A stretch of DNA of 39,440 nt from Desulfobacterales bacterium (lineage in GTDB: Bacteria; Desulfobacterota; Desulfobacteria; Desulfobacterales; UBA2245). Numbering within the stretch: the stretch's first letter is position 1; each line of letters begins with the position of its first letter. Made by a program: the position numbers and the translations under genes. Shown here piece by piece: positions 13,079 through 39,440 of the stretch. The notes beneath the pieces are model-generated. The model was not told where the DNA came from, did not search any database, and saw only the letters and a program-made list of their open reading frames with translations. The stretch is taken from contig JAXGZF010000006.1 in NCBI GenBank assembly GCA_040771865.1, positions 372,001 through 411,440 on the forward strand, read 5' to 3'.

Positions 13079-15088
13079 ATGCGGTTGAAAAACATACTGG
13101 TGACAGGCGGATGCGGTTTTATCGGCGCCAACTTCATTCGGTTTGCGCGCGAACGGGCGCCCCTTGTCCGAATTGTCAACCTCGACAAGCTGACCTATGC
13201 GGGCAACCCGGCCAACCTCGCCGGAATAGCAGAAGACGCCCGTTACCGGATGGTCAAGGGCGATATCTGCGACCCCGAACTGGTTGAACGCCTTTTTGTC
13301 GAGGAGCGGATCGACACGGTTGTCCATTTTGCCGCGGAATCCCATGTGGACCGCAGCATCACCGGCCCGGCCGAGTTCATCCGCACCAATATTCAGGGCA
13401 CGTTTATCCTCCTGGAAGCGGCGCGCCGGGCCTGGATCGGCGGCGCGTCATTTGATTGCAACCAGGCCCGGTTTCTCCATGTCAGCACCGACGAGGTCTA
13501 CGGATCCCTCGGTGAAACCGGTTTCTTCACCGAGCAGACGCCCTACGATCCACGGTCGCCCTATTCGGCCAGCAAGGCTTCATCCGACCATCTGGTCAGC
13601 GCCTACTTTCACACCTACGGCCTTCCGGTTCTGATCACCAACTGCTCCAACAACTACGGCCCGTACCAGTTTCCGGAGAAGCTGATTCCCCTGATGATTC
13701 ACAATGCCCTTAACGGCAGGGAACTGCCTGTTTACGGAGACGGCGGAAACGTCCGCGACTGGCTTTATGTGCAGGACCACTGTGCCGCGATTCTAAAGGT
13801 TCTTGAGGGCGGAAGACCGGGACAGACCTACAACATCGGGGGAAACACCGAAAAGCGGAATATCGAGGTGGTTCAAACGATCTGCGATCTGCTCGATGAA
13901 AAGGCAGGACGGCTGTTTCCCCATAAGACCCGCCGTTCCCTGGTCCGATTCATCACCGACCGCCCCGGCCATGACCGCCGCTATGCGATTGATGCGGGAA
14001 AGCTCAAGGCCGAGCTGGGATGGCAGCCTTCCATGACCTTTGAGGAAGGAATTCGAAGGACCATCGACTGGTATCTCGACAACCCGGACTGGGTGGCATC
14101 GGTCGTCGACGGCTCCTACCGGGAATACTACGCGAGGCAGTATGGAGACGCGGAACCGGAGACGGCGCGCATCCGTGTCGCTCTGACCGGGGGAAAGGGG
14201 ATGCTGGCTCGTATGATGCTTCAAAACAGGCCTGCCGAATGCGAGATTCATTCCTATGACCTGCCCGAATTCGACATCACCGACCGGGACCGGGTGCTGG
14301 CCACTTTCAGGGAACTCAAACCCGACATCATCATTAACTGTGCGGCCCGCACAGACGTCGACGGTTGCGAGAGCGACGCCGGCGCGGCCATGCGGGTCAA
14401 CGGGAATGCTCCCGGATACCTTGCTCAAGCCGCCGTCGAGACAAACGCCCTTCTGGTGCATATCTCCACCGACTATGTATTTGACGGCGTCAAACAGATC
14501 CCCTACAGTGAGGAAGACGAACCGGCGCCCCGTTCGGTCTATGGCCGGTCCAAGCTGGCCGGTGAAAGAGCGGTCATTTCCAGCGGCCTCAGGCGGTATT
14601 TCATCGTGCGCACCAGCTGGCTGTATGGCCCCGGCGGCCGGAACTTCGTGGAATCGATTCTGCGCCTTGCCGCCGAGCGCGAAGAACTGCGGATCGTCGC
14701 CGACCAGACGGGCTCGCCGACCTATACCGGCGATCTGGCCAAGGCTGTATTCAACCTTGTCGGCCGGGCCATGGATTCTTCCCGGTCTGAAACCGGCGAT
14801 CTTTACGGCATCTATCATTTTTCCAACGAGGGGGTGTGCACCTGGTTCGAATTTGCCGTTGAAATTCTCAAAAATGCCCGGAATGGAAATCTTCCGCTCA
14901 GGGTCAAAAAAGTGGTTCCCATCGCGACCAAAGACTATCCGCTGCCGGCCGAAAGACCCGCCTGGTCGGCGCTGAGCAAAGACAAATACCGCCGGGCAAC
15001 CGGAGCGTCCGTCCCCGCCTGGCAGGAGAGCCTTGAGAAATATTTTCACTTGCGTGCATCGGCTGAACACGGTAAGGCGGACCGGTGA
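13079..15088 (+). CDS. rfbB: Fused dTDP-glucose 4,6-dehydratase (RmlB) / dTDP-4-dehydrorhamnose reductase (RmlD)
   Basis: N half: TGGCGFIG, DKLTYAGN, HFAAESHVDRSI, STDEVYG, YSASK, DRPGHDRRY. C half, in the same frame with no stop: TGGKGMLA, NCAARTDVD, HISTDYVFDG, YGRSK, DQTGSPT. Confidence 0.93.
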   Translation: MRLKNILVTGGCGFIGANFIRFARERAPLVRIVNLDKLTYAGNPANLAGIAEDARYRMVKGDICDPELVERLFVEERIDTVVHFAAESHVDRSITGPAEFIRTNIQGTFILLEAARRAWIGGASFDCNQARFLHVSTDEVYGSLGETGFFTEQTPYDPRSPYSASKASSDHLVSAYFHTYGLPVLITNCSNNYGPYQFPEKLIPLMIHNALNGRELPVYGDGGNVRDWLYVQDHCAAILKVLEGGRPGQTYNIGGNTEKRNIEVVQTICDLLDEKAGRLFPHKTRRSLVRFITDRPGHDRRYAIDAGKLKAELGWQPSMTFEEGIRRTIDWYLDNPDWVASVVDGSYREYYARQYGDAEPETARIRVALTGGKGMLARMMLQNRPAECEIHSYDLPEFDITDRDRVLATFRELKPDIIINCAARTDVDGCESDAGAAMRVNGNAPGYLAQAAVETNALLVHISTDYVFDGVKQIPYSEEDEPAPRSVYGRSKLAGERAVISSGLRRYFIVRTSWLYGPGGRNFVESILRLAAEREELRIVADQTGSPTYTGDLAKAVFNLVGRAMDSSRSETGDLYGIYHFSNEGVCTWFEFAVEILKNARNGNLPLRVKKVVPIATKDYPLPAERPAWSALSKDKYRRATGASVPAWQESLEKYFHLRASAEHGKADR

Positions 15089-15134
15089 AAGTTGCGGGAA
15101 CGATCATGCCTTTGTCGAAAAATGGAGTTTTCCT

Positions 15135-15683
15135 GTGAAGGTCCAAAAAACGGCAATTCCCGGCGTCCTCATCATCGAACCCAAGGTTTTTGGCGATGAG
15201 CGGGGTTTTTTCATGGAGAGCTTCAACCAGCGGGACTGGGAAGCGATGACCGGATTGAAAACGGTCTTTGTGCAGGACAACCATTCCGCTTCGACCCAAG
15301 GGGTTCTGCGCGGGCTGCACTATCAGCTTCCGCCCGCCGCCCAGGGGAAGCTGGTCCGCTGCGTGGTCGGCGAGATCTTTGACGTGGCGGTGGATATCCG
15401 CAAAGGCGCATCGACCTTCGGTCAATGGACAGGGGTGAATCTGTCCGCAGAAAATAAACGGCAGTTCTGGATTCCCGAGGGGTTTGCCCACGGCTTTCTG
15501 GTGCTCTCGAAAACCGCCGAGGTCCTTTATAAAACCACCGGTTATTATGCGCCGGCATGTGACCGGAGCATTATCTGGAATGATCCTGATCTCGGCGTTG
15601 TGTGGCCATACTCTGAGGCCCCCATACTGTCGGAAAAGGATCGTTCGGCCGCGCGTTTTGCTGAAGCGGAAATTTTTGAGTAA
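15135..15683 (+). CDS. rfbC: dTDP-4-dehydrorhamnose 3,5-epimerase
   Basis: Motifs FGDERGFF, QDNHS, GVLRGLHYQ, DVAVDIR and GFAHGF. The start was moved to GTG 15135, after RBS ggag at 15124. Confidence 0.95.
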   Translation: MKVQKTAIPGVLIIEPKVFGDERGFFMESFNQRDWEAMTGLKTVFVQDNHSASTQGVLRGLHYQLPPAAQGKLVRCVVGEIFDVAVDIRKGASTFGQWTGVNLSAENKRQFWIPEGFAHGFLVLSKTAEVLYKTTGYYAPACDRSIIWNDPDLGVVWPYSEAPILSEKDRSAARFAEAEIFE

Positions 15684-15689
15684 TCCGAG

Positions 15690-16508
15690 ATGAATGATTC
15701 CGTCAATCCACTGGATTTATTCCGCAGCCTCTTCCGCAATCGTCATCTGCTCTGGCAGATGACGCAACGAGAGGTCGTCGGCCGCTATCGGGGCTCGGTC
15801 CTGGGAATGTTATGGTCCTTTTTCAATCCGATTTTCATGCTGGCTATTTATACTTTTGTCTTCAGCGTTGTTTTTCAGGCCAGGTGGGGGCATAGCCATT
15901 CGGAGAGCAAAACCGAATTTGCCGTCATCCTTTTTGCCGGACTGATTGTGTTCACTCTTTTTGCCGAGGTGGTCAATCGTGCGCCCGGTCTGATTCTGGG
16001 GAATGTCAGTTATGTCAAGAAAGTGGTTTTCCCGCTGGAGATCCTTCCAGTCATCGCCGCCGGTTCTGCGCTTTTTCACACCACGATCAGCGTGATGGTG
16101 CTGCTTGCTTTTCACGGCCTTGTCAGGGGGGTCCTTCCTGTAACCGTTCTGCTGCTTCCGGTCGTCCTTTTGCCGCTGCTGATATTGATTCTGGGTTTGG
16201 CCTGGTTTTTGGCCTCCCTGGGTGTGTTCCTGCGAGACGTTGGGCAGACGATCGGCATTTTCACGACGGCGTTGCTGTTTTTGAGCCCTGTTTTTTACCC
16301 GGTCTCGGCGCTGCCCGAGGGGATCCGCCGCTATCTTTTCCTCAACCCGCTGACCTTCATCATCGAGCAGACGAGGGAAGTCCTCCTCTGGGGAAATTGT
16401 CCGGACTGGTGCGGTTTGGCGATTTCTTTATTCATCAATGCGGGATTTGCGTGGGCCGGCTTATTCTGGTTTCAGAAGACGAGGAGGGGGTTTGCCGATG
16501 TCCTCTGA
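15690..16508 (+). CDS. wzm: O-antigen/glycan ABC exporter permease Wzm
   Basis: Motifs REVVGRYRGSVLGMLWSFFNP, YVKKVVFPLE, FLRD, SPVFYP and NPL, with about 6 TM segments. Confidence 0.92.
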   Translation: MNDSVNPLDLFRSLFRNRHLLWQMTQREVVGRYRGSVLGMLWSFFNPIFMLAIYTFVFSVVFQARWGHSHSESKTEFAVILFAGLIVFTLFAEVVNRAPGLILGNVSYVKKVVFPLEILPVIAAGSALFHTTISVMVLLAFHGLVRGVLPVTVLLLPVVLLPLLILILGLAWFLASLGVFLRDVGQTIGIFTTALLFLSPVFYPVSALPEGIRRYLFLNPLTFIIEQTREVLLWGNCPDWCGLAISLFINAGFAWAGLFWFQKTRRGFADVL

Positions 16509-17844
16509 AATCGCCGTGAAAGTCGAAGGCCTTTCCAAGTGTTACCAGATTTACGACAGGCCCAACGACCGTCTTAAACAATCTATTTATCCTCGTCTGC
16601 AAAGGCTTGCAGGCAAACCGCCCAAACAATATTACAGAGAATTCTGGGCGCTCAAAGATGTATCTTTCGAGGTTAAGAAAGGTGAGACCATCGGCATCAT
16701 CGGCCGCAATGGATCGGGAAAATCCACGCTGCTGCAGCTTGTCTGCGGCACGTTGACGTCCACGCTCGGAAAAGTTGAGACGAACGGGCGCGTGGGGGCT
16801 CTGCTGGAGCTGGGTTCCGGTTTCAATCCCGATTTTACGGGACGTGAAAACATATACATGAACGCCTCCATCCTCGGGCTGAGCCGGGAGGAGATCGATG
16901 AAAAATTCGATGATATTGTTGCTTTTGCCGATATCGGCGATTTTATTGAGCAGCCCGTCAAAACCTACTCGAGCGGCATGGCTGTTCGACTGGCTTTTGC
17001 GGTTCAGTCCCAGGTTTCCCCGGATGTTTTGATTGTGGACGAGGCCCTGGCGGTTGGCGACGCCAAATTCCAGGCCAGGTGTTTCGACCGGCTGAGGAAG
17101 CTCAAGGACGGCGGCGCCAGTATACTGATCGTGACGCATTCCAGCGAACAGATCGTGACGCACTGCACCAGCGCAATACTGCTGGAAAACGGCAGGGTTC
17201 TGGAGACCGGACAACCTCGATTCGTTGTCAACCGTTATATGGATCTGCTGTTCGGCAAAGAAAAAAAACCGCTTGAAACCGCTTCATTGTCCACGGCATC
17301 AGCTGCTGTGAACGAGATTGCGGATCCGGGCGCCTTGTTAAACTGCACGGATGATGTGCTTTCCACCCGCCCCGGTTACAACCCGCATGAATACCGCTGG
17401 GGAGACGGGGGCGCCGCCATTCTGGATTTCATTTTGATTGCGGATGGTGAAACTTACCCTTCCGCCGTTACTTCGGGACAAAACATCGAATTGGCCATTT
17501 CAGTAAGGTTCTTGAGCCTTCTGGTGCGTCCGATCTTGGGCGTCACCATCAAAACCAAAGAGGGCGTGACTGTCTATGGCGTTAATACGGAAACTCTGGA
17601 GGTCGGGCAGTTCCAATCTTTGGGCAAGCCGGGTCAGGCGGCATATGTCGCGGCGTCCTTCTGTTGTCGCCTCGCGCCCGGCGACTATTTCATCTCGCTG
17701 GGAATCGCTACGCGGCAGGGAGAGGATATTGTACCCCACGACAGGCGTTACGATGCCATCCATTTGCAGGTGCGGCCGGCAGCGGCATTTTTTGGGTTGA
17801 TTGATCTGGGTTTTGAACTGAAGGTAAAGGAAATTGTACCGTGA
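16498..17844 (+). CDS. wzt: O-antigen/glycan ABC exporter ATPase Wzt with C-terminal carbohydrate-binding (Wzt_C) extension
   Basis: GRNGSGKST, YSSGM and DEALAVGD, plus a ~200-aa C-terminal extension (RWGDG...LAPGDYFISLGI). ATG 16498 overlaps the end of wzm. Confidence 0.92.
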   Translation: MSSEIAVKVEGLSKCYQIYDRPNDRLKQSIYPRLQRLAGKPPKQYYREFWALKDVSFEVKKGETIGIIGRNGSGKSTLLQLVCGTLTSTLGKVETNGRVGALLELGSGFNPDFTGRENIYMNASILGLSREEIDEKFDDIVAFADIGDFIEQPVKTYSSGMAVRLAFAVQSQVSPDVLIVDEALAVGDAKFQARCFDRLRKLKDGGASILIVTHSSEQIVTHCTSAILLENGRVLETGQPRFVVNRYMDLLFGKEKKPLETASLSTASAAVNEIADPGALLNCTDDVLSTRPGYNPHEYRWGDGGAAILDFILIADGETYPSAVTSGQNIELAISVRFLSLLVRPILGVTIKTKEGVTVYGVNTETLEVGQFQSLGKPGQAAYVAASFCCRLAPGDYFISLGIATRQGEDIVPHDRRYDAIHLQVRPAAAFFGLIDLGFELKVKEIVP

Positions 17845-19976
17845 AATCAAAACTTTCAGAATCGGGGTATCAATTCGACACGCAGACCGGCGTCTGGCTG
17901 CGGCCAGGCTACGCCGGAATCGCCTACAGCGATGGCGAAAACGTCGAGCGCCGTATCGCCGCCATAATCGAGCGGGCGAGCGACCTAACCGTTCTGTCCG
18001 AAGAGCTGCGCCGACATTGTTCGGACTGGCCTTCTTTTTACCACCTCAGCGGGGCGCGATCCAATATCCTGCGGCCGTTTAAAGACATTTTAAAAGGCGC
18101 GGATGTGCTGGAAGTCGGTGCGGGCTGCGGCGCAATCACCCGCTATATGGGAGAGTGCGGCGCCAGAGTGCTGGCTCTGGAAGGGACTCTGCGTCGTGCG
18201 GCCATTGCAAGATCCCGCACACGGGATTTGCCTGATGTCATCGTTACAGCGGATCGATTGGATCAATTTGAATGCGGTCAAAAATTCGACGTGATCACAT
18301 TGATCGGCGTACTGGAATACGCAAATCTGTTTACGTCCGGGGATGATTCCGCACTTGCCATGTTGCGGCAGGCGCGAACTGCGCTGAAGCCCGGCGGCAA
18401 ATTGATTCTGGCAATTGAGAACCAGCTGGGTCTTAAATATTTTGCCGGTGCGCCGGAAGATCACCTGGGGCAGTCCATGTATGGAATAGAGGGGCGTTAC
18501 GAGAAGGATCAGCCGCAGACCTGGGGGCGTAAAGTGCTTGCAGAAATGCTGATGAAGGCCGGTTTTGCGCGTTCGGAATTCATGGCGCCGTTCCCCGACT
18601 ACAAGTTGCCGGTTTCCATCGTTACTGAAAGCGGTTTTTCCTGTGTGGGTTTTGATGCCGGCGCGCTGGCATGGCAAAGCGTCAAACGCGATCCCCAGCT
18701 GCCGCATATACTGGCGATGTCGCCCGAACTCGTCTGGCCGGTTCTTGCTCAGAACGAAATTGCGCTGGACCTGGCAAACTCGTTTCTTGTTGTGTCCGGA
18801 GACGCCATTGGAAAGAGACCGGATACATCCATTCTTGCCTGGCATTTCACGGGTGAGCGATCCGGGGAATTCTGCAAGGAAACCCGGTTTGTACAAACCG
18901 GCCATGGCGAAATAGAGGTTCGTTACCATTTGCTGGCCGGGGGCGATAGGCGCGTCAAGGGAAGGCTGCTGACGTTCTTCGTTCCGGAAAAAGCGGAATA
19001 TGTTCAGGGCAGACCCCTGTCTCAGGAGCTGCTCCATATCGTCACCCGGAACAGTTGGCGCATGGAGGAAGTCGGCGCATTCTTCAAACGATACCTGCAT
19101 GTTCTCGGCTCCCTGACCGCATCCGGCGAGGCGCCTTTATCAATTAATTCCGCCGATAGTCTCATTTCCGGCGAACATCTGGATCTGCTGCCGCAAAACA
19201 TCATCGTCGGCTGGGACGGGTTGTGCAGGGTGATCGATAAGGAATGGCAATGGAACGACGACATGCCTTTAGGATGGCTGATATTTCGTTCTTTGCTCAG
19301 GCTGATACATACCGTGACGCGCTTCAGCGCTTCTGCCAGCGACTTTGTCGGCACCCCGCTGGGCTTTATCCGCGCCGCATTCAAAGCCGCCGGATTTGCC
19401 GTAACCGACGGTGAGATTGAAAGTTTCGCGAGGCTGGAGGAGGCGCTGCAATCCGAAGTTGCCCGGCGTCCGTTGAATAATGACGAATTTATTCATTGGC
19501 TGCGCACAGCTCCCCTGCCTCGATGCAATCTGAACCAGGCTTTAATCGAGCGCGACCGGCAGATTTCCGGCCTCAATCAAGTGGTTGCGGATCAGGCGAG
19601 GCACATTCGGAATGTAGAGTCGGATTGGTCGGCGCGGGGACAGCGTATTGAGGAGCTGGAGCGGGTTGCAGCGGATCAGGCGAGGCACATTCGGAATGTA
19701 GAGTCGGATTGGTCGGCGCGGGGACAGCGTATTGAGGAGCTGGAGCGGGTTGCAGCGGATCAGGCGAGGCACATTCGGAATGTAGAATCGGATTGGTCGG
19801 CGCGGGGACAGCGTATTGAGGAGCTGGAGCGGGTTGTAGCGGATCAGACCGCTCATATAAAAGATCTGCTTGTCCACATTAACAATATCGAAGCAGAGTT
19901 GACGGAATTTCGCTTGTCCTGGTACGGAAAACTGAAAGCGGCAATCCAGAAAGCGCGTCAACGCCGACAAAAATAG
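17841..19976 (+). CDS. WbdD-like glycan chain terminator: class I SAM methyltransferase + kinase-like domain + coiled coil
   Basis: VLEVGAGCG, FDVITLIGVLEY, LKPGG and IENQLGLKY. Central DLLPQNII...VIDKEW is kinase-like. C-terminal heptad coiled coil and basic tail. GTGA overlap with wzt. Confidence 0.78.
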   Translation: MKSKLSESGYQFDTQTGVWLRPGYAGIAYSDGENVERRIAAIIERASDLTVLSEELRRHCSDWPSFYHLSGARSNILRPFKDILKGADVLEVGAGCGAITRYMGECGARVLALEGTLRRAAIARSRTRDLPDVIVTADRLDQFECGQKFDVITLIGVLEYANLFTSGDDSALAMLRQARTALKPGGKLILAIENQLGLKYFAGAPEDHLGQSMYGIEGRYEKDQPQTWGRKVLAEMLMKAGFARSEFMAPFPDYKLPVSIVTESGFSCVGFDAGALAWQSVKRDPQLPHILAMSPELVWPVLAQNEIALDLANSFLVVSGDAIGKRPDTSILAWHFTGERSGEFCKETRFVQTGHGEIEVRYHLLAGGDRRVKGRLLTFFVPEKAEYVQGRPLSQELLHIVTRNSWRMEEVGAFFKRYLHVLGSLTASGEAPLSINSADSLISGEHLDLLPQNIIVGWDGLCRVIDKEWQWNDDMPLGWLIFRSLLRLIHTVTRFSASASDFVGTPLGFIRAAFKAAGFAVTDGEIESFARLEEALQSEVARRPLNNDEFIHWLRTAPLPRCNLNQALIERDRQISGLNQVVADQARHIRNVESDWSARGQRIEELERVAADQARHIRNVESDWSARGQRIEELERVAADQARHIRNVESDWSARGQRIEELERVVADQTAHIKDLLVHINNIEAELTEFRLSWYGKLKAAIQKARQRRQK
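19587..19847 (+). repeat. Three tandem 84-bp repeats (28 aa = 4 heptads) plus a 9-bp partial copy
   Basis: Units start at 19587, 19671 and 19755. Copies 1 and 2 are identical and copy 3 differs at 2 nt. The unit encodes ADQARHIRNVESDWSARGQRIEELERVA. Confidence 0.97.
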
Positions 19977-19985
19977 AGGCTTGAT

Positions 19986-21071
19986 ATGAACATTACTGTT
20001 ACAAAACCTTTTCTGCCGCCCTTCGCGGAGTTCAATGCCTACCTGGAAGGCATATGGGGGCGTGAATGGCTTACGAACAATGGCCCCCTGGTCAATGAGC
20101 TTGAGTTGAAACTCAAGGATTATCTTAAGGTGGATCACCTGCTGTTTCTTTGCAACGGCACCATCGGGCTTCAAATAGCGATTCGCGCGCTGGATTTGCA
20201 GGGCGAGATCATCACCACTCCCTTCAGTTATGTTGCGACGACCTCCAGCATTGTCTGGGAGAGATGTCGGCCGATTATGGTCGATATCTGCCCGAAAACC
20301 CTGAATATCGACCCCGATAAAATCGAGCAGGCCATTACCGGCAAAACCACGGCCATACTCGCGACGCATGTATTCGGAAACCCCTGCGATGTGGATGCCA
20401 TTTCCACGCTCGCGCAAAAACACGGCCTGCGCGTGATTTACGATGCGGCCCACGCGTTTGGATGCATTTACAAAAAACGCTCTCTTCTATCGTACGGCGA
20501 CATTTCCGTTTGCAGCTTTCACGCGACCAAACTCTTCCACACCATTGAAGGAGGCGCCGTGATCACTCCCGATGCCGAAGTTCTGAAGCGGATGGCCTTG
20601 ATGAGAAACTTCGGTCACGCTTCGCTGACGGAGTTCGACGGGCTTGGGATCAACGGCAAAAATTCCGAAATGCATGCGGCAATGGGTTTGTGCAATCTCA
20701 GGCATATTGAGAATATTATTGAGACCAGGCGCAGGCTATGCAAATACTACGCCATACAACTTGAAGGCCTTCCTCTCCGGTTCCAGGAAATTGCGCCCGA
20801 TACGCAGTATAACCATGCGTACTATCCGGTGGTGTTTGAGAGCGAATCCATGATGTTGAAGGTTCTGGATCATCTGAACGTGAACAGTATTTTCCCCCGC
20901 AGATATTTCTATCCGGCTTTGTCGAATCTTCCTTATATATACGGGCAGAACGCGCCGATAGCCGAGGATGTCTCGCGCCGCATTCTCTGCCTGCCCCTGT
21001 ACCACAAGCTGTCGGAAGCGGAGGTCGCCATGATTTGCCGGTTCATCAAACGGACGCTCAAATACATCTGA
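19986..21071 (+). CDS. vioA: DegT/DnrJ family dTDP-4-amino-4,6-dideoxy-D-glucose aminotransferase
   Basis: Motifs WLTNNGP, TTPFSYVAT, YDAAHAFG, SFHATK (PLP Lys), GINGKNSE and RRYFYP. Paired with a VioB-like acetyltransferase. Confidence 0.8.
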   Translation: MNITVTKPFLPPFAEFNAYLEGIWGREWLTNNGPLVNELELKLKDYLKVDHLLFLCNGTIGLQIAIRALDLQGEIITTPFSYVATTSSIVWERCRPIMVDICPKTLNIDPDKIEQAITGKTTAILATHVFGNPCDVDAISTLAQKHGLRVIYDAAHAFGCIYKKRSLLSYGDISVCSFHATKLFHTIEGGAVITPDAEVLKRMALMRNFGHASLTEFDGLGINGKNSEMHAAMGLCNLRHIENIIETRRRLCKYYAIQLEGLPLRFQEIAPDTQYNHAYYPVVFESESMMLKVLDHLNVNSIFPRRYFYPALSNLPYIYGQNAPIAEDVSRRILCLPLYHKLSEAEVAMICRFIKRTLKYI

Positions 21072-21083
21072 TAGAGGGGGAAC

Positions 21084-21653
21084 ATGTCCTGGTTGTCTGT
21101 TCAACAGATCCATGAAATCGGTTTCGGTCGAGTCGGCTGCAATGTGATGATATCCGACAGCGCAAGGTTCTATAATCCGATGAACATTCGTATGGGGAAC
21201 CATGTGCGCATCGATGACTTCTGCGTAATATCCGCGGGCGAAGGAGGGGTTGATATCGGCGACCATATTCACATTGCCGTATTTTCGTCGATTCAGGGCG
21301 CGGGAAGGGTTGCGCTCTCCGATTTTTGCAATCTGTCCTCAAGGGTTTCGGTTTATTCCAGCAATGATGACTATTCCGGCGACAGCATGACGAATCCGAC
21401 CGTGCCGGACAGATTCAAAAACGTCAAACATGCGGACGTATTTCTTGGAAAGCATGTCATCGTCGGCAGCAACAGCGTTATTTTGCCGGGAGTCGTCATC
21501 GGCCAGGGCGCTGCAATCGGCGCCCTGAGTCTGGTGAACTCGGATTGCGACAGTTTTTGCGTTTATGCGGGCGTTCCCGCCAAAAAAATCAAAAACAGAT
21601 CAAGCGGTTTGCTGAATCTGGAAAATGAGCTCAGGGGGTGCGGTGAAGGTTAA
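21084..21653 (+). CDS. vioB: Hexapeptide-repeat N-acetyltransferase (dTDP-Qui4N acetyltransferase-like)
   Basis: VRIDDFCVISAGEGG, SSRVSVYSSNDDYSG..MTNP and YAGVPAK. It resembles VioB as I recall the family and is adjacent to vioA. Confidence 0.75.
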   Translation: MSWLSVQQIHEIGFGRVGCNVMISDSARFYNPMNIRMGNHVRIDDFCVISAGEGGVDIGDHIHIAVFSSIQGAGRVALSDFCNLSSRVSVYSSNDDYSGDSMTNPTVPDRFKNVKHADVFLGKHVIVGSNSVILPGVVIGQGAAIGALSLVNSDCDSFCVYAGVPAKKIKNRSSGLLNLENELRGCGEG

Positions 21654-22593
21654 CCTGTCGATTCTTCTGGTAACATTCAATCATCGGCAATACATCGGTC
21701 AGGCGCTGAATTCGCTGTTCAAACAGAGATTTGAAGGCGATGTCGAACTGGTGGTTGCCGACGACGGCTCTTCGGATCAAACGATGAACATCATCAGGTC
21801 TTACGAAGGGACCGATGACCGTTTTCATTTTAAATATCTGGACAGCGGTTCAAACCTGGGCGTCACCGGAAACTACCAACGCGGTTTTGCCGCATGTTCC
21901 GGAGAATATGTCGCGGTACTTGAAGGAGATGATTATTGGGTCAGCCCGATGAAACTTCAGCGCCAGTGCGATTTTCTGGATGCTCACTGGGAGTGCGATC
22001 TGTGTTCAGTCAATTACTATGTATATGAAGAAGAGCGCTCCCGGTTTACCCCCAGAACGGCGACCGGTTCCGGATACAGGCTTATCGGCGCCAGAGATCT
22101 GATTGCAGATAACCTGGTGGGGAATTTTTCCACCTGCATGTATCGAAAATCCGCGCTGGACGGATTGCCTCGGAAGCTCTTTGAGATTAAATCCTACGAC
22201 TGGATCGTGAATATATGTGTGGCGCGCCGGAGTCTGATCGGATTCCTGGAGGCGCCGATGTCCGTTTATCGTCTGCACGCCGAGGGCATCTGGACGAAAA
22301 CCTCCCTGATCGAAAAACTCAGGACCCAGCTCGATCTTATTCCGGATTACGATGCGCTGACCCAATATGTCTTTCATGAGGATTTCGATCTTTTGGCGAA
22401 CCGTTTACGGCAGAGCATGGCTGCATCGCAAATCGGCAATGTCGCGGATTTCGTTTCCGGACCTGCGGGGGGCTTTTTGCCTGTTCTCTTGGACTGGATG
22501 CCGTCTGTGTTGGTGAGTGCAGCCCGCGCGATCCTGCCTCCGGCGCTCAAGCGTTTTATTGTCGGAAAGCTTCAGGGGAATCGCGCCGTATGA
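21643..22593 (+). CDS. GT2 family glycosyltransferase
   Basis: Motifs LSILLVTFNH, VADDGSSD and GEYVAVLEGDDYW. Probable start is GTG 21643 (alternative ATG 21625). Confidence 0.88.
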   Translation: MKVNLSILLVTFNHRQYIGQALNSLFKQRFEGDVELVVADDGSSDQTMNIIRSYEGTDDRFHFKYLDSGSNLGVTGNYQRGFAACSGEYVAVLEGDDYWVSPMKLQRQCDFLDAHWECDLCSVNYYVYEEERSRFTPRTATGSGYRLIGARDLIADNLVGNFSTCMYRKSALDGLPRKLFEIKSYDWIVNICVARRSLIGFLEAPMSVYRLHAEGIWTKTSLIEKLRTQLDLIPDYDALTQYVFHEDFDLLANRLRQSMAASQIGNVADFVSGPAGGFLPVLLDWMPSVLVSAARAILPPALKRFIVGKLQGNRAV

Positions 22594-23720
22594 AACCGCC
22601 GGCGGTCTCGGTCGTTATGGCGACCTATAATCATGCCGACTTTGTTGTTCAGGCAATTGAAAGCGTTCTCAATCAGAAAGACGTGGATTTTGAGTTTCTC
22701 ATCGCCGATGACGGTTCGGTAGATCACACAAGAGATGTTGTTGCCGCCATTCCTGATGAAAGAATCCGCTTTTTCCCATACAGAGAGAACCGCGGCGCAT
22801 GTACGGTTACCAATGAGCTGATTCGGCGCGCATCGGGAGAATTTATTGCGATCATCAATTCCGACGACTATTGGATCGGAAGCGACAAGCTCGCATGCCA
22901 GCTGGAGGTGATGCGTGAAAATCCGGCCATCGGCGCCTGTTTCGGGCGCGTACGGTTTGTGGACAGAGAAGGGGTTTCCATCGACAAGTCGCAAATGCCG
23001 AGGGGGGGCGTTTTCGACCAGGGAAACCGTTCGCGCGGCGCCTGGCTCCGGCATTTTTTCGACCAAGGCAACTGCATCTGCCATCCGACGATGCTGATAC
23101 GCAGGGCGTGTTACGATGCACTGGGCTTATACGACAACCGTCTGCGGCAATTGCCGGATTTCGACATGTGGGTGCGTCTGGTGAAACGGTATGACATTCA
23201 CGTCAGCAACAGGGAAATGATCGCCTTCCGGCAATTGCCGGGAGAAAACGCCAGCAGCGCCACGTGCGTCAATTTAAGGCGCCTGATGAATGAATTTTAT
23301 TTTGTTCTGCAAAGATTTTTTGACGAAATTCCGCGCGATGTATTTCTGGACGGTTTTGGAAACCTGCTGACAGCGCCCGATCCTCCGGACAACGTGCATA
23401 TCGATATAGAGCAGGCCCTGCTGTACCTTGGAAAAAACCGGTGGGCCTCCCACATATACAATCTGATCGGTCTCGAAAGAATGCACTTTCTGCTGGGCAG
23501 CGAACCACACCGGCGGATCCTCATCGATCGCTACGGTATCGACGACCGCGCTTTTCACTCATTATCGGCAGAAACCGGCGTGTTCGATCTGGAAGATTCG
23601 GCGTCAAAGCTCTCTGTCATCGATGGAATATCATTAGTCGCGGAAGTCAAGCGTCGTGTCCTATTGCGCATTCCGCCGATTCTTCGCCCCTTCCTGAACC
23701 GTGTCCTGAAAAGGTTTTAA
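22590..23720 (+). CDS. GT2 family glycosyltransferase
   Basis: Motifs VSVVMATYNH, IADDGSVD, IAIINSDD, CHPTMLIRR and LPDFDMWVR. ATGA overlap with the upstream gene. Confidence 0.9.
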   Translation: MKPPAVSVVMATYNHADFVVQAIESVLNQKDVDFEFLIADDGSVDHTRDVVAAIPDERIRFFPYRENRGACTVTNELIRRASGEFIAIINSDDYWIGSDKLACQLEVMRENPAIGACFGRVRFVDREGVSIDKSQMPRGGVFDQGNRSRGAWLRHFFDQGNCICHPTMLIRRACYDALGLYDNRLRQLPDFDMWVRLVKRYDIHVSNREMIAFRQLPGENASSATCVNLRRLMNEFYFVLQRFFDEIPRDVFLDGFGNLLTAPDPPDNVHIDIEQALLYLGKNRWASHIYNLIGLERMHFLLGSEPHRRILIDRYGIDDRAFHSLSAETGVFDLEDSASKLSVIDGISLVAEVKRRVLLRIPPILRPFLNRVLKRF

Positions 23721-23728
23721 CAGATTCC

Positions 23729-29440: not shown

Positions 29441-29687
29441 CGCCAGGCTTTCCTCAGGGCCTGTTGCATGCGCGGCGGGTATTCGAAAAACAGGGGGGGC
29501 GACGGCCTGAGAAGCCATCTCAACAATACCGCATCTTCCTGAATGCCGTAATATCTTTGAAATTCGCTTGACAACACGATTGAAAAGCGCTTAAAAGTTC
29601 ATATTGACATAATCGGATTCAGCGTTTTAAAGAAAGTCAATCTGCTCTAGCCGTCGCGCATGTGAGCATATTATCAAGGAGACAGTG

Positions 29688-29915: not shown

Positions 29916-30555
29916 TTTATGATTCATTTAAAAAATATCGTTGCAATCATTTCATGTTTGGTCTATTTTAACCAAAATAAGTTAACAAAGCGGTTGATCC
30001 GTCAAGGCCGGGTTGGAATTTTTCAGGTTGTCGCGCGGAATTTCAGACAGGCTTTGGCGTTTGAAATCATCGCCATGGACGCAGGCGTCAATACGCAGAG
30101 TATTTAGTACCTGAGTTTGTTCAGAAGGCAGTGTATTTTAGGTTGCCGCTCTTTTACAGTCATAGTTTGTTTAAAACCATACGGGCGCGGGCGGCGAATT
30201 GTTGCGCAGGCCGGGCGGCATGTTATTTCAGTTCAAAGCCCGGTTGAACTGGTATCGGATTTTAGAATCTCTTGCGCCTTTAAGCCGGATGCGGTTCGGT
30301 TGCGGGAACTGCCTGACGGGGAAAAGCGCCATTGAGATCGCTTTTGCGGCTTGGCGCATGGTTCGGGCCGCTTTTGCCGGCGATAAACCCCAGCCCGATT
30401 TCCTGCGCAATCATCGTGCGCACCCGCCGCATCGTAAAAAATGAGTAAAGGATTTAAGGATATTGCCAATAAAACCAAATAAAGCCGAATATTATTTCAG
30501 GGTTGCGGGCCTCAGCAGGGAGCCGTGGCAAACGGATCGGGGCCATGGAGCATAA

Positions 30556-30601
30556 AGGCCCGGGGGATTGCCTGATTTCTAATCTCGGCCTGATTTTTTT
30601 T
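30556..30601 (+). terminator. Possible intrinsic terminator upstream of the giant-gene promoter
   Basis: Bulged stem aggcc..gggatt / aatctc-ggcct followed by an 8-T run (30594-30601). Confidence 0.35.
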
Positions 30602-30674
30602 GAAAGCAGGGTTGCAATTCCAGAGGAAGGATATGCGGCAACTCTGCCTTTAAAAAATCGGCCTATGTATATTT

Positions 30675-30737
30675 GCACAAAAATCTGAGGAAATTTGTGC
30701 GGATGTGTTGACAATTGCGGTGAGTAAGTGTTATTTG
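30675..30737 (+). promoter_or_regulatory. Candidate promoter with upstream inverted repeat for the giant surface protein
   Basis: GCACAAA-N12-TTTGTGC (30675-30700) sits just before a perfect TTGACA (30708-13). Imperfect AT-rich -10 region at ~30731-37. Confidence 0.45.
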
Positions 30738-30754
30738 AGCAAAATGATTATTGT

Positions 30755-30784
30755 CAGGAAGAGAAAACAGGAAGAGAAAACAGG
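30755..30784 (+). repeat. 13-bp tandem direct repeat in the 5' leader
   Basis: caggaagagaaaa occurs twice, followed by cagg. ttgtcagga also occurs at 30751 and 30786. Confidence 0.85.
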
Positions 30785-30822
30785 TTTGTCAGGATAAATC
30801 CATTCAAAAAGGAGAGAATAAA

Positions 30823-33800
30823 ATGACTGCATTTTACGAAGGTTATTACCTGGCACAGAACCCTGATGTTGCCAAAGCGGTTAATGCCGGACTGATCGGA
30901 TCCGGTTGGGAGCATTATGTAAATTGGGGAGCGGCGGAAGGCAGAAGCTACGCCGAACCGCAATATTACGATTCTTTCAATGAAGTTTACTATCTGGCCA
31001 AATACCCCGATGTCGCAAAGGCCGTCAATCTCGGCCTGATCGGGACCGGCTGGGATCATTACGTGAATTGGGGCGCCCTGGAGGGCAGAGACGGCGCCAT
31101 TCCTCCGGCCGGCTATGATGATTTCAGCGAAGAATACTACCTGGCCAGGAATCCCGATGTGGCCAAGGCGGTCAATGACGGCATTATCGGCTCCGGCTGG
31201 GAGCATTATGTAAATTGGGGAGAGGCGGAAGGCAGAAGCTTTGCCGCGCCGTCAGGCTATGGCGACTTCAGTGAAATCTACTATCTGGCCAACAACCCCG
31301 ACGTGGCCGCCGCTGTTCAGGACGGCTATTACGGCACCGGCTGGCAGCATTACTCGGAGATCGGACAGTCTGAAGGCAGAAGCTATGCTGCGCCGGCGGC
31401 TGTCAATGGCGCGGTGCTTCAGTCGGATGCGTTGCCGGATATACCGATTCCGCCCGCCACGGGCAATCTTTTCACCCTTTCCGAAATTGTGGTTGAAGAG
31501 GAAGGCACTTCGGATGTCATCGAGATTTACTGGGGATACACGCCCCACCAGTACGGCCCTAACGATGGGGACGACGTGAGCCGCGGCATTCCCGTCGAGG
31601 ACCTGCTGAGCTTCCTCACGGCCATTACCGGCCTGGACCTCTACGAGCTGGGTCTGATCGACGACGACGGTCTCGGCCCGTTCGACAACGTGACCAGCCT
31701 GTCGTTGAGCAACCCGCTCAGTTCCACCACGGAAGGGGATGCCACGAACGCGGATGGAGGCAATGCGGACGATGAAAGCATTGCCGGCGGCGCCACGAAT
31801 GTCCAACTGGTAATAAACTACGCCGACGGCACCTCGATGTCCTTCAACGCCGAGGCGTTTCTGGGCGAGCAGTACTTCTACTTCCTGCAAAACCTGCTGT
31901 TCTACACCGACGAGGACGGCCTCCTGCAGTCCCGTCTGTTTGAAAGGGTTGTCGAGGAAGGCACGAGCGACTCCGAATATCTCGAACCGATCATCCTGAC
32001 TCCGGTCATAAACAACGGCGGCACCCTGGAACCCGGCTACACCTCCAACGCCGACGACACCATCGTTGCCGGACGTCTGGAGCTGCTGCACCAGGCCTAC
32101 ATCGACGCCGGACTGGGCTACGACATTCTGGAAATCGACGCCAAGGGCATCTACGCCCAGCCTCTGGAGCTGCTGAACATCGAGGAAATCCGTGTTCAGA
32201 ACCTGCCCAATGTCTATACCACCGATGATTTTGACGAGCTCGGGGGATACGTGGGCTACTCCACCTATCCGTGGCTTTCTGAAGACTGTGACAACGGCTT
32301 TACCAACAGCTACGTTGACCTGAGCCGCGCCACCAGCATCGAGAAGCTGGTTGTGAACGAGGCATCTTATTCCAACTATAATCCTTTCGGCATCGAACTG
32401 GGAACCCTGTCCATCGTCGGCGTCCGCAACAACGCCACCCTTCGCCTCGAAGGCGGTTTTACCGAGGATGTGGTTGTATCATACGCTCAGGGCCTGACCG
32501 GCTGTCTGAATGTCGAGCTGGCGCTGGGCGCCGTTGAGAGCGACATCTACATTCTGCAGAACGCCGCGGTGCTCAACATCGATTCTCAGGGCTATGAAAA
32601 CTATATGCGCGGCTTCTTTGTCGGCGGCCACGTCACCAGCTTGTTCATCACCGGAACAGGCGCTTTCGGCGTTGGCGACGACATGGCCGACAGCTTCCAC
32701 ATGAGCCGTCCCGTCCTTATCGACGCCAGCGAGAACACCGGCGGCATCGACATCACCATAGGCTACCACGAAGACAACATCACCGTTATCGGCACGATTG
32801 CCCGCGATGAAGTGGACGTTTATACGGATTTCGGCGACGTGACGGTCGCCGTGGACGAGGGCGCCAACGTCGTCTATGCCGAGACTTACGAAGGCAACGT
32901 GCTCGTCACCGCAGGATCTGCCAGAGACTATATCGAAGCCTATTCGGATTATGGCGACGTTACGGTTGAAGCAGGCGACGGACAGAACTACGTCGATGCG
33001 TATGCCGATGAGGGCAACGTACTCGTCACCACCGGGTCCGGCGCAGATGAAATCTACGCCGAGGCCTATTACTGGGGCAACGTCACGGTCGACGCCGGCG
33101 AGGGCAACAACTACATCTATGCCGAAACCGATGAAGACTGGGGCGACGACACCTCCGGCAACATCGAGATCACCGCGGGCGCCGGCAACGACTCCATCTA
33201 TGCGGAGACCGAGGAAGGCGACATCGCGATCAACGCCGGCGGCGGAACCAACTACATCGAGGCGTGGACCTATGCATACTATGAAGGCGCCGGCAATATC
33301 GACATCACTACCGGCGCGGGCAAAGACACGATCTGGGCCGGTACGGACAATTATTATGGAAATGTGACGATCGATGCGGGCGCAGGCGACAACTGGATAG
33401 ACGCCTACACCTACTATGACGATCTGTCGATTACCACCGGCGCGGGCAACGACATCATTTACGCGGAAGGCGGCGATCCGGATAATTGGTCGTGCGACGC
33501 GACAGTGACCATCGATTCAGGCGCCGGCAACGACAACATCTACGCCGAGGGTTACTCCAACAGAGTGCTGGTAACGGTCAATTCAGGCGACGGCTTGGAT
33601 CAGATTCAGATCCGCGCGTACAAGTCTGTCGTAAATGCGGGCGCCGGTGACGACACTGTTGTGGTAGACGGCACGGGCGAATATTCAACGTTCACCATTG
33701 ACGCCGGCTTGGGAGAGGACACGATCATCCTTAACGACGGGGTGACTGCAGGCGACGGCTCCAGCATTTCCGGCGCCGAGACGATCATCGTCTCCTCGGA

Positions 33801-36800
33801 CAGCGACCTCACCCGCGCGACGTTGACCGGCGTTGCCACCGTGCAACTCCTGGATGATAGAGAGCTTACCTTAACTGCCGAGCAATTCAGCGCGCTTGGC
33901 GCTGGCGCCTTTATCGTTGAGGACGCGTCTTTCGGCGACGAGGCCGAGATTAACATCAAGGTCACGGAAGATTACACGCTGGGCGATGTGTCTGGCCTGG
34001 GAGAAAACATCCGGCTGACGTTCGACATTCTGAACGGCGCCAGGCTGACGCTGACGGCCGAACAACTCCACTACTATGTGGCGGAGGACGGCATCGACTC
34101 AACCGACGGCCTGAACGGTGGGGTGACGATCACCAACGCCGGTATGGATTTCGACGCCTTTGACAATGGTCCTGACTATCAGGTGGACGACGGCGGCACG
34201 CTGTCCGACACCTTTGCTACTAGCGACGACGTTATTATTCTGCGCAGCCCCGACGGATTCGACCGGCCCGAACCGGAAGACTCGATGGATATCACCGAGA
34301 TCGATTCCGATGTCACTCCGGTCATCTCCGACCCGATCATTCTGGGCGACAACGTGGACAACGCGACGCTCCTCAAGATCGTCGGCGGCCAGGATATCCT
34401 CTTTGAGGACGGCGCTTACGTGGATCTGGGCGGCTACGGAGACTCCATCGACTTCTCCGAGCTCAGCGGCACGGTCACCGGCCTGACGGTCAAACATTTT
34501 GACAATATCGGCGGCGTGGAGGGCAACAGCACCGGCACGCGCATCGATGTCGAACTGACCGGCAATGTTGGCAGCTCCACGCAGGGCCTGGTTACCAGCG
34601 GCGTTGAAACCTACGTGGTAACGGCTGTTGATACAGATGACGATGGAAACATCACTGAAAACGAAACCGCCACCATCTGGCTCTGCGATGACGCTCAGGA
34701 TCTGGAAGTGATCGGCCTGCAGGGCAATGGCGGCAACACCCTGATCATTGAACAAATTCCGTGGGGCCTTGTGGCGCCGACCATTCTGCTGGAAGGCGAC
34801 GGCTATGCCGACTGGAACCAGGGTCTGAAGGTCGACGGCAATCCGAACGCCTCCGACATCGGAAACATCGAGTTCAATTTCTTCTATCCCGGCGCTCCGG
34901 CGGTGGTCAACATCAACAACGGCGGCGTGGAACTGGGCGTTACCTCGACAGGCGGCGAGCGCTTCTTTGATATCGGGTATATCGAAATGAGCAATGCGGC
35001 CTCCCTGACGATCAATGTGACCGAAGGCGATGCGGTGATAGAATCTATCGACAACGATATGGACCTTAAGACCCTGACGCTGACGGCCACGGAGGATCTG
35101 ACCATTAGCGAGGATCTGCGGTTCCTGACCGCCATCGACGGCACCGGCGTGGTCGGTCATCTGACCCTGACCATCGATGACGACCTCTACAACGGGCCCT
35201 TTACCTTGACGGCCGGCGACGGCGGTTTGACCCTGACCCTCGACGGCTGGTACGCCCAGACGGCCGATTTCGCAGATTGCGTCATCGACGCGGGCGCGGG
35301 AATGGGAACCCTGATCATCGACGGCGATTTCGATCTCTCCGGCGCGGATCTGATCAATATCAACAGCCTGGTCCTGGAAGACGATGCGACCGTGTGGCTG
35401 TCCATGTCGCAGTCCGACGCCATCGGCGCGGCCAACATCGTTCTGGCCGAAGACGCGGACAACGCCACCCTGAATCTGTCCGGACTGGACGGCGAGCCCT
35501 TTGCGGTTGCCAACTACGCGGATGGCATCGACATCAATCTGCTTCGGCTGATCGACGCGGATGTGACTCTGCATGCGCTTACCGACCTGCACCAGATCGA
35601 CGGGCTCGAGGTGGCGGAAGGCAGGACCCTCACGCTGACGGCGACGCAGTTCCAGCAGTTGGTTGCAGCAGGCTCGCTGGATTGGTATGAGACCGACGGC
35701 AATCCCGCCACGGGCGGCTTTAATGTGGTCATCACCGACCTGACCCAGGCGGCCGTGGACTACGATGAGAACGGAGACGGCGTTGCCGACGGATTCGATC
35801 TGTCCGGAATCGACGACGATGCGACCGTTGTCATCAACATGACCGAAGACGTGACGCTGACATCCGGCATGAGTTTCGGCAACTATCTGGAAAACGTCAC
35901 CGTGAACATGGGCGACAACATGACCCTGACCCTGGCCGACATTCAGCAGGCCGACGGTCTGACGGTCAACGGCGGTGCCGGCAGCGTTCTGAAGTTCACC
36001 GACACCTATGCGGGCATGTTCGAGAGCATCGACGCCTCCGGCTTTAACGTCGACTACCTCATGGTGCTCAACGTCCTCATCGATGCCCGGAACATCGATC
36101 TGATGTTCTATGACCTGCCCGAGTCGGTAATCAAGTACGTCTACAACGATCTCGGCTTTGTGGGCACGGTCGATCAGATCATGACGATCGAAGAAGGCAC
36201 CTCGATTCCGGGCTTTGTCGTCGTCAATCCGCCCTCCGAAGAGACCGAGCTTTCGAGTCTGACCCTGAACATGATGGGCGGCACCGAGATCGCGGGCAAC
36301 CTGCGGATTTCGACCACGGCGAAGGACGATGATCTGATTCCGGCGTACCTGCGGACCCTGGTCATCAACTCCGAGGGAACGGCGGAAAACCTGATCACCG
36401 GAGAGACGGCCAACGTCATCGCCGGCGACATCACGCCGATGGGAAGCGGTTATCAGGTGGTCTACACCAGCTACAACAACAACCTGCTCGACGTTGAAAT
36501 CAACGCCACGCAGGAGCTGATCGTCGAAGGCTCGATCATCTTCAACTCCAACACGGCGAGTGATGCTCCGTTCGATTCAAACTACTGGGAAGACGGCATC
36601 ACGGCCAACGATCAGGATCAGGCAACGGCGACCCTGACCGTTACCGGCACGGCCGATGTCACCATCCAAGAGCTGGACGTCGATGATCCGGACATTCAGA
36701 CCCTGAGCATCGCCAACGACGGAACCGGCACGTTGACCATCACCGGCGCCTCGCCCGCCATCGACGGCGAGAAGCCAGGCTCTGCCCCCGACTGCATTGA

Positions 36801-39440: not shown

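Follow-up and report, generated by a model that had tools for sequence, protein, structure and literature searches.

A candidate glycan-anchored surface-layer system in a member of the Desulfobacterales: a giant type I secretion substrate beside an O-polysaccharide cassette

Glycan and secretion genes at the locus

Here we examine a 39,440-nucleotide stretch of DNA from a bacterium of the Desulfobacterales (hereafter the window: contig JAXGZF010000006.1 of assembly GCA_040771865.1, positions 372,001 to 411,440), in which a surface-polysaccharide cassette, a type I secretion system (T1SS) and the gene for a giant protein of a surface-layer (S-layer) family follow one another. The block fills window positions 13079-39440 and all of its genes lie on the + strand; every gene that a first-pass annotation had named in a co-oriented block of about 26 kb was found again there among the open reading frames (ORFs) and with Pfam and NCBIfam. 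We give an even chance to the reading that this block is an S-layer system whose glycan cassette supplies the anchor. Below, C6 is the contig that carries the window, and C3, C5, C7, C8, C10 and C12 are other contigs of the same genome (G000); G001 is a genome of the same genus, G017 is a metagenome-assembled genome (MAG) of the Desulfobacterales from another family, L-numbers denote loci and P-numbers denote proteins retrieved as relatives.

The cassette opens with an RmlB-RmlD fusion (13079-15088; dTDP-glucose 4,6-dehydratase plus dTDP-4-dehydrorhamnose reductase), which exceeds the cut-offs of TIGR01181 (545 bits) and TIGR01214 (364 bits), agrees with Pfam and shares 85% DNA identity with G001. 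It is followed by the 3,5-epimerase RmlC (15033-15683; PF00908, 2.3e-75), whose match begins at ORF residue 39 and whose true start is probably downstream of 15033. The dTDP-rhamnose pathway predicted in the first pass is thus present in the window as rmlBD and rmlC, and rmlA lies outside it, on C7. Next come the ABC-2 permease of a glycan exporter, Wzm (15690-16508; ABC2_membrane, PF01061, 4.9e-26), the only such ORF found in the genome with the query set used, and the ATPase Wzt (16438-17844; PF00005), which ends in a Wzt_C domain (PF14524, 4.9e-31) that is the only match to this model in the 2.98-Mb genome. Domains of the Wzt_C family bind the capped end of the exported glycan.

Two enzymes further along the cassette point to one of its sugars. 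The first is a DegT-type, DesI-like sugar 4-aminotransferase (19986-21071; PF01041, 1.7e-87; best PDB match 2po3, DesI, 1.5e-58), for which the best NCBIfam model, TIGR04427, scores 271 bits, below its cut-off of 650. The second is an N-acyltransferase of the hexapeptide, left-handed beta-helix type (21084-21653), which matches PDB entries 3vbi-3vbp over its full length (7e-52 to 9e-51); 3vbn is described as AntD, an N-acyltransferase of anthrose synthesis (PMC6031040). From the DesI-like and AntD-like pair we predict 4-acylamido-4,6-dideoxyglucose and leave the acyl group unspecified. Where Qui4NAc made by VioA and VioB had been proposed before, we retain the 4-amino-4,6-dideoxyglucose part and drop the acetyl part, and the supposed VioB is better described as AntD-like. 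Two GT2 glycosyltransferases follow (21625-22593, PF00535, 3.2e-24; 22590-23720, PF00535, 2.2e-24), to which three more GT2 genes can be added on C12, downstream of the C-terminus of the giant protein, and then a conserved protein (23729-24637) with no Pfam or NCBIfam match, which the Atlas places in hypothetical clusters (0.97-0.99) with DUF4422 as a weak lead (13% of the members of one cluster). The gene set of an ABC-transporter-dependent O-polysaccharide is present, with Wzm, Wzt, glycosyltransferases and nucleotide-sugar genes clustered; one Wzy_C/WaaL-family match on C10 (57.8 bits, above the cut-off) could be either a ligase or a polymerase.

Between wzt and the aminotransferase gene lies a terminator-like protein of 711 amino acids (17841-19976), a class I methyltransferase with a long helix. 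Pfam methyltransferase models cover residues 73-242, and the AlphaFold2 (AF2) model (pLDDT 84.7) comprises a methyltransferase fold (Z 16.8 in the VIA structure comparison), a second domain, a single helix of about 120 residues (564-683) and a short, basic C-terminal helix (695-708); the conserved middle domain corresponds to residues 325-560. An 84-bp tandem repeat lies within the long helix (19587-19847; 3.1 copies, 98% alike, as found with Tandem Repeats Finder and in the protein sequence), and each copy encodes 28 residues, that is four heptads, so that a change in copy number would alter the length of the helix in fixed steps. This architecture, in which a methyltransferase is joined to a further domain and then to a long and a short basic helix, with Wzt_C next door, resembles that of WbdD of Escherichia coli O9a, in which the coiled coil acts as a ruler. 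The description as WbdD-like, made in the first pass, holds for architecture only: no WbdD sequence match was found in the PDB at E<=0.01, the WbdD entries 4ax8, 4azs and 4azt ranked 35-41 with Foldseek (E about 1e-8 over 508-599 columns, template-modelling scores 0.22-0.36, root-mean-square deviations 17-21), and the 50 best VIA rows were single-domain methyltransferases without WbdD. WbdD combines its methyltransferase with a kinase, and these comparisons brought out no kinase domain here. The protein has 3951 relatives at E<=1e-10, many of them fused to GT2, GT4 or RgpF domains, and some relatives from Legionella bear long coiled coils. Three of the latter with very long coiled coils (P0281, P0284 and P0289) are labelled 'chromosome segregation protein SMC' at source, which is probably a mis-annotation.

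The secretion genes are those of a PrtD-type T1SS: an ABC transporter of 555 amino acids (24813-26480; TIGR01842, 661.8 bits against a cut-off of 510; 85% DNA identity in G001), an HlyD-type membrane-fusion protein (26538-27938; TIGR01843, 337 bits against 209) and a TolC-family outer-membrane channel (27913-29319; PF02321, 9.8e-55), which likely starts at the Met near 28006, where its ortholog in G001 begins. They are separated from the giant gene by a 1.5-kb spacer (29320-30822) that contains no ORF longer than 96 amino acids. No Rfam match was obtained in the spacer at E<=0.1, its promoter-like sites did not exceed those of shuffled sequences and a terminator scan found nothing above chance; a long leader is possible. 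Four metatranscriptome libraries, all from one study, contain 83-88% of the words sampled from 29441-39440, and contigs from these libraries, mostly of at least 99% identity, cover about 29.6-39.4 kb. Their longest pieces begin at 29591-29862 and extend into the giant gene, which is compatible with a transcript carrying a leader of about 1 kb; such contigs give neither start nor level, and DNA carry-over is possible. The same four runs had no contigs on 19441-24776 and short, low-depth ones on 24777-29445, and cannot rank the genes, and RNA runs X6-X20 contained small shares (0.05-0.18) that are no evidence of habitat. The part of the spacer covered by RNA contigs contains a 76-codon ORF (29685-29915); in Methylotuvimicrobium alcaliphilum, a small partner gene adjoins the S-layer gene (PMC11784148). 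Past position 39203, contigs from three of the four libraries diverge from the window with an identical 88 loose letters, which points to a strain difference or to a faulty assembly of the final 240 bases of the contig.

The giant protein and its family

The giant frame starts with an ATG at 30823 and runs to 39438, encoding 2872 residues without a hydrophobic N-terminus, with 17.5% D+E and 2.3% K+R. It was previously recorded as a protein of more than 2870 residues; the frame stands, and it ends at the end of C6 rather than at a stop codon. The continuation is found at the start of C12 (positions 1-1008), where the first 336 codons match the very C-terminal ends of 80 of 120 relatives, with E-values as low as 1e-66; in 33 of the 34 cases computed, the gap implied between the two contigs amounts to about 105-160 residues, and the complete protein should be about 3,300 residues long. 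This link rests on the comparison with the wider family: against the G017 homolog taken singly, the C12 fragment gave nothing significant with BLASTP (best E 0.76), and neither k-mers nor blastn revealed an overlap between the end of C6 and any other contig. The join is further supported by G001, which keeps the order tolC, substrate, GT2, epimerase, MFS, tamB. Downstream on C12 are three genes for SapC, one for an IS200-like transposase, three for GT2 enzymes and one for an epimerase, and all three SapC matches of the genome fall in this part of the giant locus. SapC 1 and 2 are separated by a DUF2442 gene and the IS200-like (Y1_Tnp) transposase gene (L020, C12 2452-4603). The SapA/sapCDEF system of Campylobacter fetus is an S-layer T1SS with a SapC-family accessory gene and resembles the present locus in this respect, with its three SapC paralogs beside the giant; among 14 control genomes, Caulobacter alone was positive for SapC-family genes.

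The giant has the traits of a type I secretion substrate: it lacks a signal peptide, is acidic, carries RTX repeats and has cognate genes for the ABC transporter, the membrane-fusion protein and the outer-membrane protein. The RTX-like Gly/Asp repeats (GxGxDxI type) occupy residues 643-973 (32749-33741; HemolysinCabind, 33 bits against a cut-off of 23). The C12 fragment reaches the last residues of the relatives, and there is no model for the secretion signal itself.

A word-indexed search retrieved 140 relatives at E<=1e-3, mostly of 3,000-4,500 residues. One of these, P0009, matches the giant at E=0 with 1701 bits and 37% identity over 75% of the query; it is UniRef H8GFV3 of Methylomicrobium album BG8. 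This protein (Metal_0880, 4036 amino acids) is described as the major unit of a shed cup-shaped S-layer and was detected in purified units; it is frameshifted in low-pH-adapted strains that have lost the layer, together with a mutation in a porin gene, and the genes for PrtD, HlyD and TolC (Metal_0877-0879) lie directly upstream (PMC13274458). In related methanotrophs, deletion of MEALZ_0971 or EQU24_15540 abolishes the 'hauberk' layer, and for both proteins BLAST finds a homolog in M. album BG8 (PMC11784148). The hauberk proteins (Metal_0880/H8GFV3, MEALZ_0971 and EQU24_15540) are of the same size class, 3-4.5 thousand residues (PMC13274458, PMC11784148), and H8GFV3 shares with the giant the conserved core, the C-terminus and the PrtD-HlyD-TolC genes directly upstream. 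The homology to H8GFV3 and the common order of the upstream genes support the first-pass view of the giant as a T1SS-type surface-layer protein. The accompanying remark that a characterised example in the Desulfobacterota was not known needs to be corrected: the family itself is characterised (PMC11784148, PMC13274458), and Marinobacterium litorale and two Desulfovibrionales, Desulfonatronum and Desulfonatronospira, have already been listed among its BLAST homologs (PMC11784148).

The conserved core (window-protein residues 216-520; 31468-32382) starts 2-406 residues from the N-terminus in 113 of 120 relatives, always downstream of a variable N-terminal part. A locus scan with alignment recovered 40 family loci, including those of M. 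litorale, Methylotuvimicrobium buryatense 5G and Allochromatium warmingii; an earlier genome scan with exact peptide words from the giant had recovered no relative. The M. buryatense 5G locus (L050) contains an ORF of 2133 amino acids with a T1SS upstream and a SapC gene adjoining, and this ORF fits the description given for EQU24_15540 (PMC11784148). Chromatium and other Chromatiaceae MAGs are also among the family loci, and the genome paper on Chromatium okenii describes S-layer units that are conical and hexagonal, and predicts a T1SS of the Sap type. Giants from a Chlorochromatium preprint were considered as well and are not counted here as members of the family. Whereas the methanotrophs are aerobic, the host of the window is an anaerobe of the Desulfobacterota type. 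The family is widespread in Proteobacteria, Chlorobiaceae and Campylobacterota; in our sample of the host's relatives it occurs in two of 40 other genomes, one of them by a weak N-terminal match (7e-8), and was not found in G001, and in the phylum it occurs in one of 400 other genomes sampled. Compared with phmmer against all PDB chains, the 2872 residues gave nothing at E<=1 except an antibody fragment (0.45). Our literature searches found no relevant characterised system combining S-layer, T1SS and O-antigen in sulfate reducers, and nothing on these S-layers in the literature on DUF4214, a domain discussed below.

The genome also contains a second giant open frame of 7505 codons, which occupies the first 22.5 kb of C8 on the minus strand, runs off the contig start and has an N-terminal 'LEPRLLLS' motif; by tblastn it is unrelated to the giant of the window. 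At the start of C5 is a 1072-codon open frame with a hydrophobic, basic tail at its end.

The N-terminal module and its link to the glycan genes

The N-terminus of the giant is made of four copies of a 48-residue repeat (30823-31407; Tandem Repeats Finder, period 144). Among 120 relatives, 51 have a DUF4214-like N-terminus and four the 48-residue repeat, and the 40 loci divide into 22 with DUF4214, one with the repeat and 17 that are other or cut. The giant itself has no DUF4214 (PF13946) match in the Pfam scans, and hhalign found no relation between the repeat alignment and the DUF4214 N-termini of the relatives (probability 0.08%). The repeat is far from rare: of 1.84 billion cluster representatives, 6027 match it at E<=1e-3, and 442 do so at E<=1e-30. 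Its position in the 150 best representatives is mostly C-terminal (114), otherwise N-terminal (29) or internal (five), and in two it spans the entire protein; FG-GAP, cadherin, Big_5, VWA and Lcl_C are among the domains of its carriers. In a second scan, three of ten carriers were GT2-GT4 fusion enzymes. Since the module is common to secreted proteins and to cytoplasmic polysaccharide enzymes, the simplest reading is that it would be a polysaccharide binder.

The repeat has no Pfam model; DUF5338 was considered, and membership was not accepted as the matches are weak (25.6 bits for the protein itself, below the cut-off of 25.9) and span about 30 profile positions. Its AF2 model is confident (pLDDT 92.4), with three short helices per unit, and has no solved relative (best Foldseek E 4.4; best Z across VIA 2.0 over 38 residues), a null result that shows neither a new fold nor a difference from the N-terminal domain of RsaA, the S-layer protein of Caulobacter crescentus. 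At the level of sequence, the first-pass expectation of an anchor domain different from that of RsaA is supported, as the N-terminal module is unrelated and has no PDB sequence match at E<=1. The repeat recurs in our genome in two signal-peptide proteins of 568 and 989 amino acids on C3 (L079, 1240-2943 and 3443-6409), whose C-termini consist of four to five copies and the larger of which also has NosD-like beta-helix and CarboxypepD_reg matches; these proteins may be held on the same surface ligand as the giant. In A. warmingii (L047, 6361-8238) and a Chromatium MAG (L038, 3727-8109), proteins with an N-terminal repeat and cadherin-like domains are encoded just upstream of the giant and could be adaptors or second surface proteins.

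We then considered what lies beside the family genes. The 40 loci were taken with up to 10 kb of flanking DNA, often less where a contig ends, and their ORFs were assigned by best phmmer match to proteins of the window and of G017. In this survey, of the kind proposed in the first pass, wzm and/or wzt are present in 14 of the 40 loci, SapC in 13 and PrtD/HlyD in nine. According to the record titles, the linkage extends over Gammaproteobacteria, Betaproteobacteria, Campylobacterota and Desulfobacterota. In Undibacterium flavidum, a cassette of GT4, GT4, wzt, wzm, methyltransferase and glycosyltransferase genes was found about 15 kb upstream, beyond the first flank. The G017 locus contains rmlBACD, wzm, wzt, GT4 genes, a DUF4214-methyltransferase, TolC, a 2733-residue homolog of the giant, HlyD, SapC and three ABC genes of PrtD-like type, two of which were scanned with Pfam. 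When five genomes were searched with the Wzt_C model, exactly one match was found in each of three, beside the giant gene each time, and none in M. buryatense 5G or Shimia abyssi. The linkage of glycan and giant genes is recurrent, not universal.

The presence of the cassette follows the type of N-terminus. A wzt gene is found in the flanks of 12 of the 22 loci with a DUF4214 N-terminus, in the single locus with the repeat and in one of the 17 others; the last is A. warmingii, where a 626-residue repeat protein lies between wzm/wzt and the giant gene. A methyltransferase is encoded beside the giant in ten loci, and in four of them (L036, L044, L052 and L056) it carries DUF4214 according to Pfam. 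In L042, the only one of the loci with a repeat-bearing giant, the neighbouring methyltransferase of 363 amino acids starts with one copy of the repeat. The giant and the neighbouring methyltransferase therefore have the same module type in all five loci where the module of the enzyme is recognisable.

The comparison with G001 provides a second line of evidence. This sister species has 85% DNA identity to the window over 9447-15607, a segment that starts inside comEC, includes rmlBD and stops inside rmlC, and over 24749-29298 (prtD to tolC), and the intervening 9 kb or so is different DNA. The G001 cassette contains wzm, wzt with Wzt_C, a methyltransferase-GT2-GT4 fusion of 1176 amino acids, GT2, a PMT_2-like membrane protein and an acyltransferase, and downstream of tolC an RTX protein of 1051 amino acids replaces the giant (L072, 12676-15828), with no SapC-like ORF among those called at the locus. 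The first 184 residues of this RTX protein are 51% identical to the N-terminus of the family giants of Chlorobiaceae, which makes it, as judged by alignment, a third module type on a different body. Conserved flanks with a differing cassette and a differing substrate indicate that cassette and substrate were exchanged together. Upstream of the block, the window contains genes for a multihaem cytochrome c, a molybdopterin oxidoreductase, a 4Fe-4S protein and an NrfD-type membrane subunit (2527-7572; Pfam), followed by those for MurA, ComEC and an HDOD protein, ordinary neighbours that are kept in G001.

Proposed glycan anchoring and its alternatives

Based on these comparisons, we propose the following mechanism. 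The giant, of about 3,300 residues, would exit the cytoplasm in one step through PrtD/HlyD/TolC, using its C-terminal RTX region and secretion end, and would then assemble into a cup- or cone-type S-layer, as expected from its homology with the methanotroph hauberk proteins. The cassette would build on a lipid carrier a rhamnose-containing polymer of controlled chain length, and the DesI-like and AntD-like enzymes would supply the 4-acylamido-4,6-dideoxyglucose that it carries. The long-helix methyltransferase would methyl-cap the polymer, Wzt_C would recognise the cap, and Wzm/Wzt would export the product, which would then probably be ligated to lipid A-core. The four N-terminal repeats, which occupy the place where most relatives have a DUF4214 module, would bind to this polymer and so keep the layer attached to the outer membrane. 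Of these elements, the S-layer identity of the giant has the support of its homology to an S-layer protein that is itself proven; the glycan as anchor, and glycan length as layer spacing, are suggested by comparison between loci, and we likewise infer the formation of a lattice here, the structure of the sugar, the binding of the repeat to the glycan and the effect of the ruler on spacing.

The closest known logic is that of RsaA and RsaDEF in C. crescentus, which by inference is alike in its one-step PrtD-type T1SS, its RTX-type calcium repeats and its N-terminal hold on an O-polysaccharide. The anchor polysaccharide of RsaA contains a 4-acylamido-4,6-dideoxyhexose. The proteins themselves have no detectable sequence similarity at E<=1, and the giant is about three times larger. 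A second parallel is Psh of Pseudomonas putida KT2440, which is exported by a T1SS and whose gene has an operon for O-antigen capping and biosynthesis on one side and the genes of its T1SS on the other; this RTX-DUF4214 protein is proposed to coat O-antigen, with a helix-rich module placed on capped O-antigen (bioRxiv 10.64898/2026.09.02.748959). Psh differs from the giant in that its DUF4214 is C-terminal and in that it is described as a multimer shield, not a lattice (bioRxiv 10.64898/2026.09.02.748959).

A number of points weigh against the glycan as anchor. The lattice, the protein and the glycan of this organism are predictions from its genes, and the contigs of the RNA libraries prove neither transcription nor its level. 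The repeat is without a solved structural relative, so that the case for its binding to glycan is drawn from context; similarly, the O-antigen binding of Psh comes from gene context and modelling (bioRxiv 10.64898/2026.09.02.748959). The methyltransferase of the window lacks the repeat, and elsewhere in the genome the giant matched, by tblastn at E<=1e-6, the repeat on C3 alone. Among the ten neighbouring methyltransferases of the family, six lack DUF4214 at E<=1e-3, and as the loci are related and not independent, our counts overstate the support. The glycan link is not seen in the characterised methanotroph members; H8GFV3 differs from the giant in having neither DUF4214 nor the repeat.

These points lead to the alternative that the giant forms a T1SS-exported S-layer while the neighbouring glycan is an O-antigen or capsule-like locus, or decorates the layer, and attachment occurs through an outer-membrane protein, SapC or a membrane segment. 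We regard this as unlikely. In its favour, the anchors suggested in the methanotroph papers are a membrane segment, a porin or a small protein acting as partner, and the layer is described there as glycosylated (PMC11784148, PMC13274458); in term searches, the main texts of both gave no mention of O-antigen, DUF4214 or SapC. It would also account for M. buryatense 5G, which has no Wzt_C match whereas the window has wzm/wzt and Wzt_C next door, for the 26 of 40 loci that lack wzm/wzt within the flanks, and for the linkage to SapC in 13 of 40. What it leaves unexplained is that the module type tracks the presence of the cassette (13 of 23 loci with DUF4214 or the repeat against one of 17), that the methyltransferase and the giant have a module in common in five loci, and that cassette and protein were replaced together in G001. 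A further point against it is that T1SS substrates do not pass through the periplasm, the compartment in which the glycan exported by Wzm/Wzt would be available for transfer.

A less probable alternative is that the giant is an RTX adhesin or a loose, non-crystalline coat on O-antigen, of the type of the Psh phage shield, and does not form a lattice. A large, acidic, repeat-rich protein with RTX repeats and a neighbouring T1SS would be in line with this, as would the occurrence of the 48-residue repeat in many unrelated secreted proteins and the precedent of Psh as a non-lattice T1SS coat encoded near O-antigen genes (bioRxiv 10.64898/2026.09.02.748959). We think it quite improbable, given the full-length homology, in both core and C-terminus, to a protein without which the cup-shaped S-layer is lost. 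In addition, the ABC transporter is of the 555-residue PrtD type, and no LapG/LapD-type genes are present among the ORFs scanned in the block. The exporters of the RsaA and Sap S-layer proteins are also of the PrtD type, whereas the transporters of LapA-type adhesins have an extra N-terminal domain. Finally, mere chance or hitch-hiking in a variable surface-antigen island, the glycan genes and the secreted protein being functionally unconnected, might be suspected from the variability of the region between congeners, the IS200-like transposase gene between SapC copies and the rarity of the family in the phylum (one of 400 other genomes), and is very improbable in view of a linkage that recurs in four classes or phyla and of a genome whose single Wzt_C lies in this block.

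Returning to the glycan-anchor reading, we consider it to be the best explanation of the comparative pattern, at a likelihood close to evenly balanced. The giant is best filed as an added member of a family described in 2024-2026, and the system as a variant of the T1SS-exported, polysaccharide-held S-layer with another lattice protein and an uncatalogued anchor module. A broader reading can be offered only tentatively. It holds that the S-layer protein and the cytoplasmic capping enzyme share an interchangeable reader module, that each locus is a matched pair of capped glycan and lattice swapped between strains as a unit, that the 28-residue copies tune glycan length and lattice distance in steps, and that the 48-residue repeat represents a large uncatalogued polysaccharide-binding family with an unsolved fold. 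As part of the same tentative proposal, the reader would be DUF4214 in most lineages, the 48-residue repeat here and a third type in G001 and the Chlorobiaceae.

The published accounts of the methanotroph S-layers leave open how the layer is attached to the cell (PMC11784148, PMC13274458). Our results suggest an answer for a large part of the family, in which a swappable N-terminal module would read the capped polysaccharide produced by an adjoining wzm/wzt cassette. They also define the 48-residue repeat, with thousands of members and a confident predicted fold for which neither a Pfam model nor a solved relative exists, and add anaerobic bacteria from digesters and sediments to the hosts of the family. 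Should the pairing of module and glycan be true, it would bear on defence against phages and predators, on cell-surface display and on the way in which surface-antigen islands are read in uncultured bacteria.

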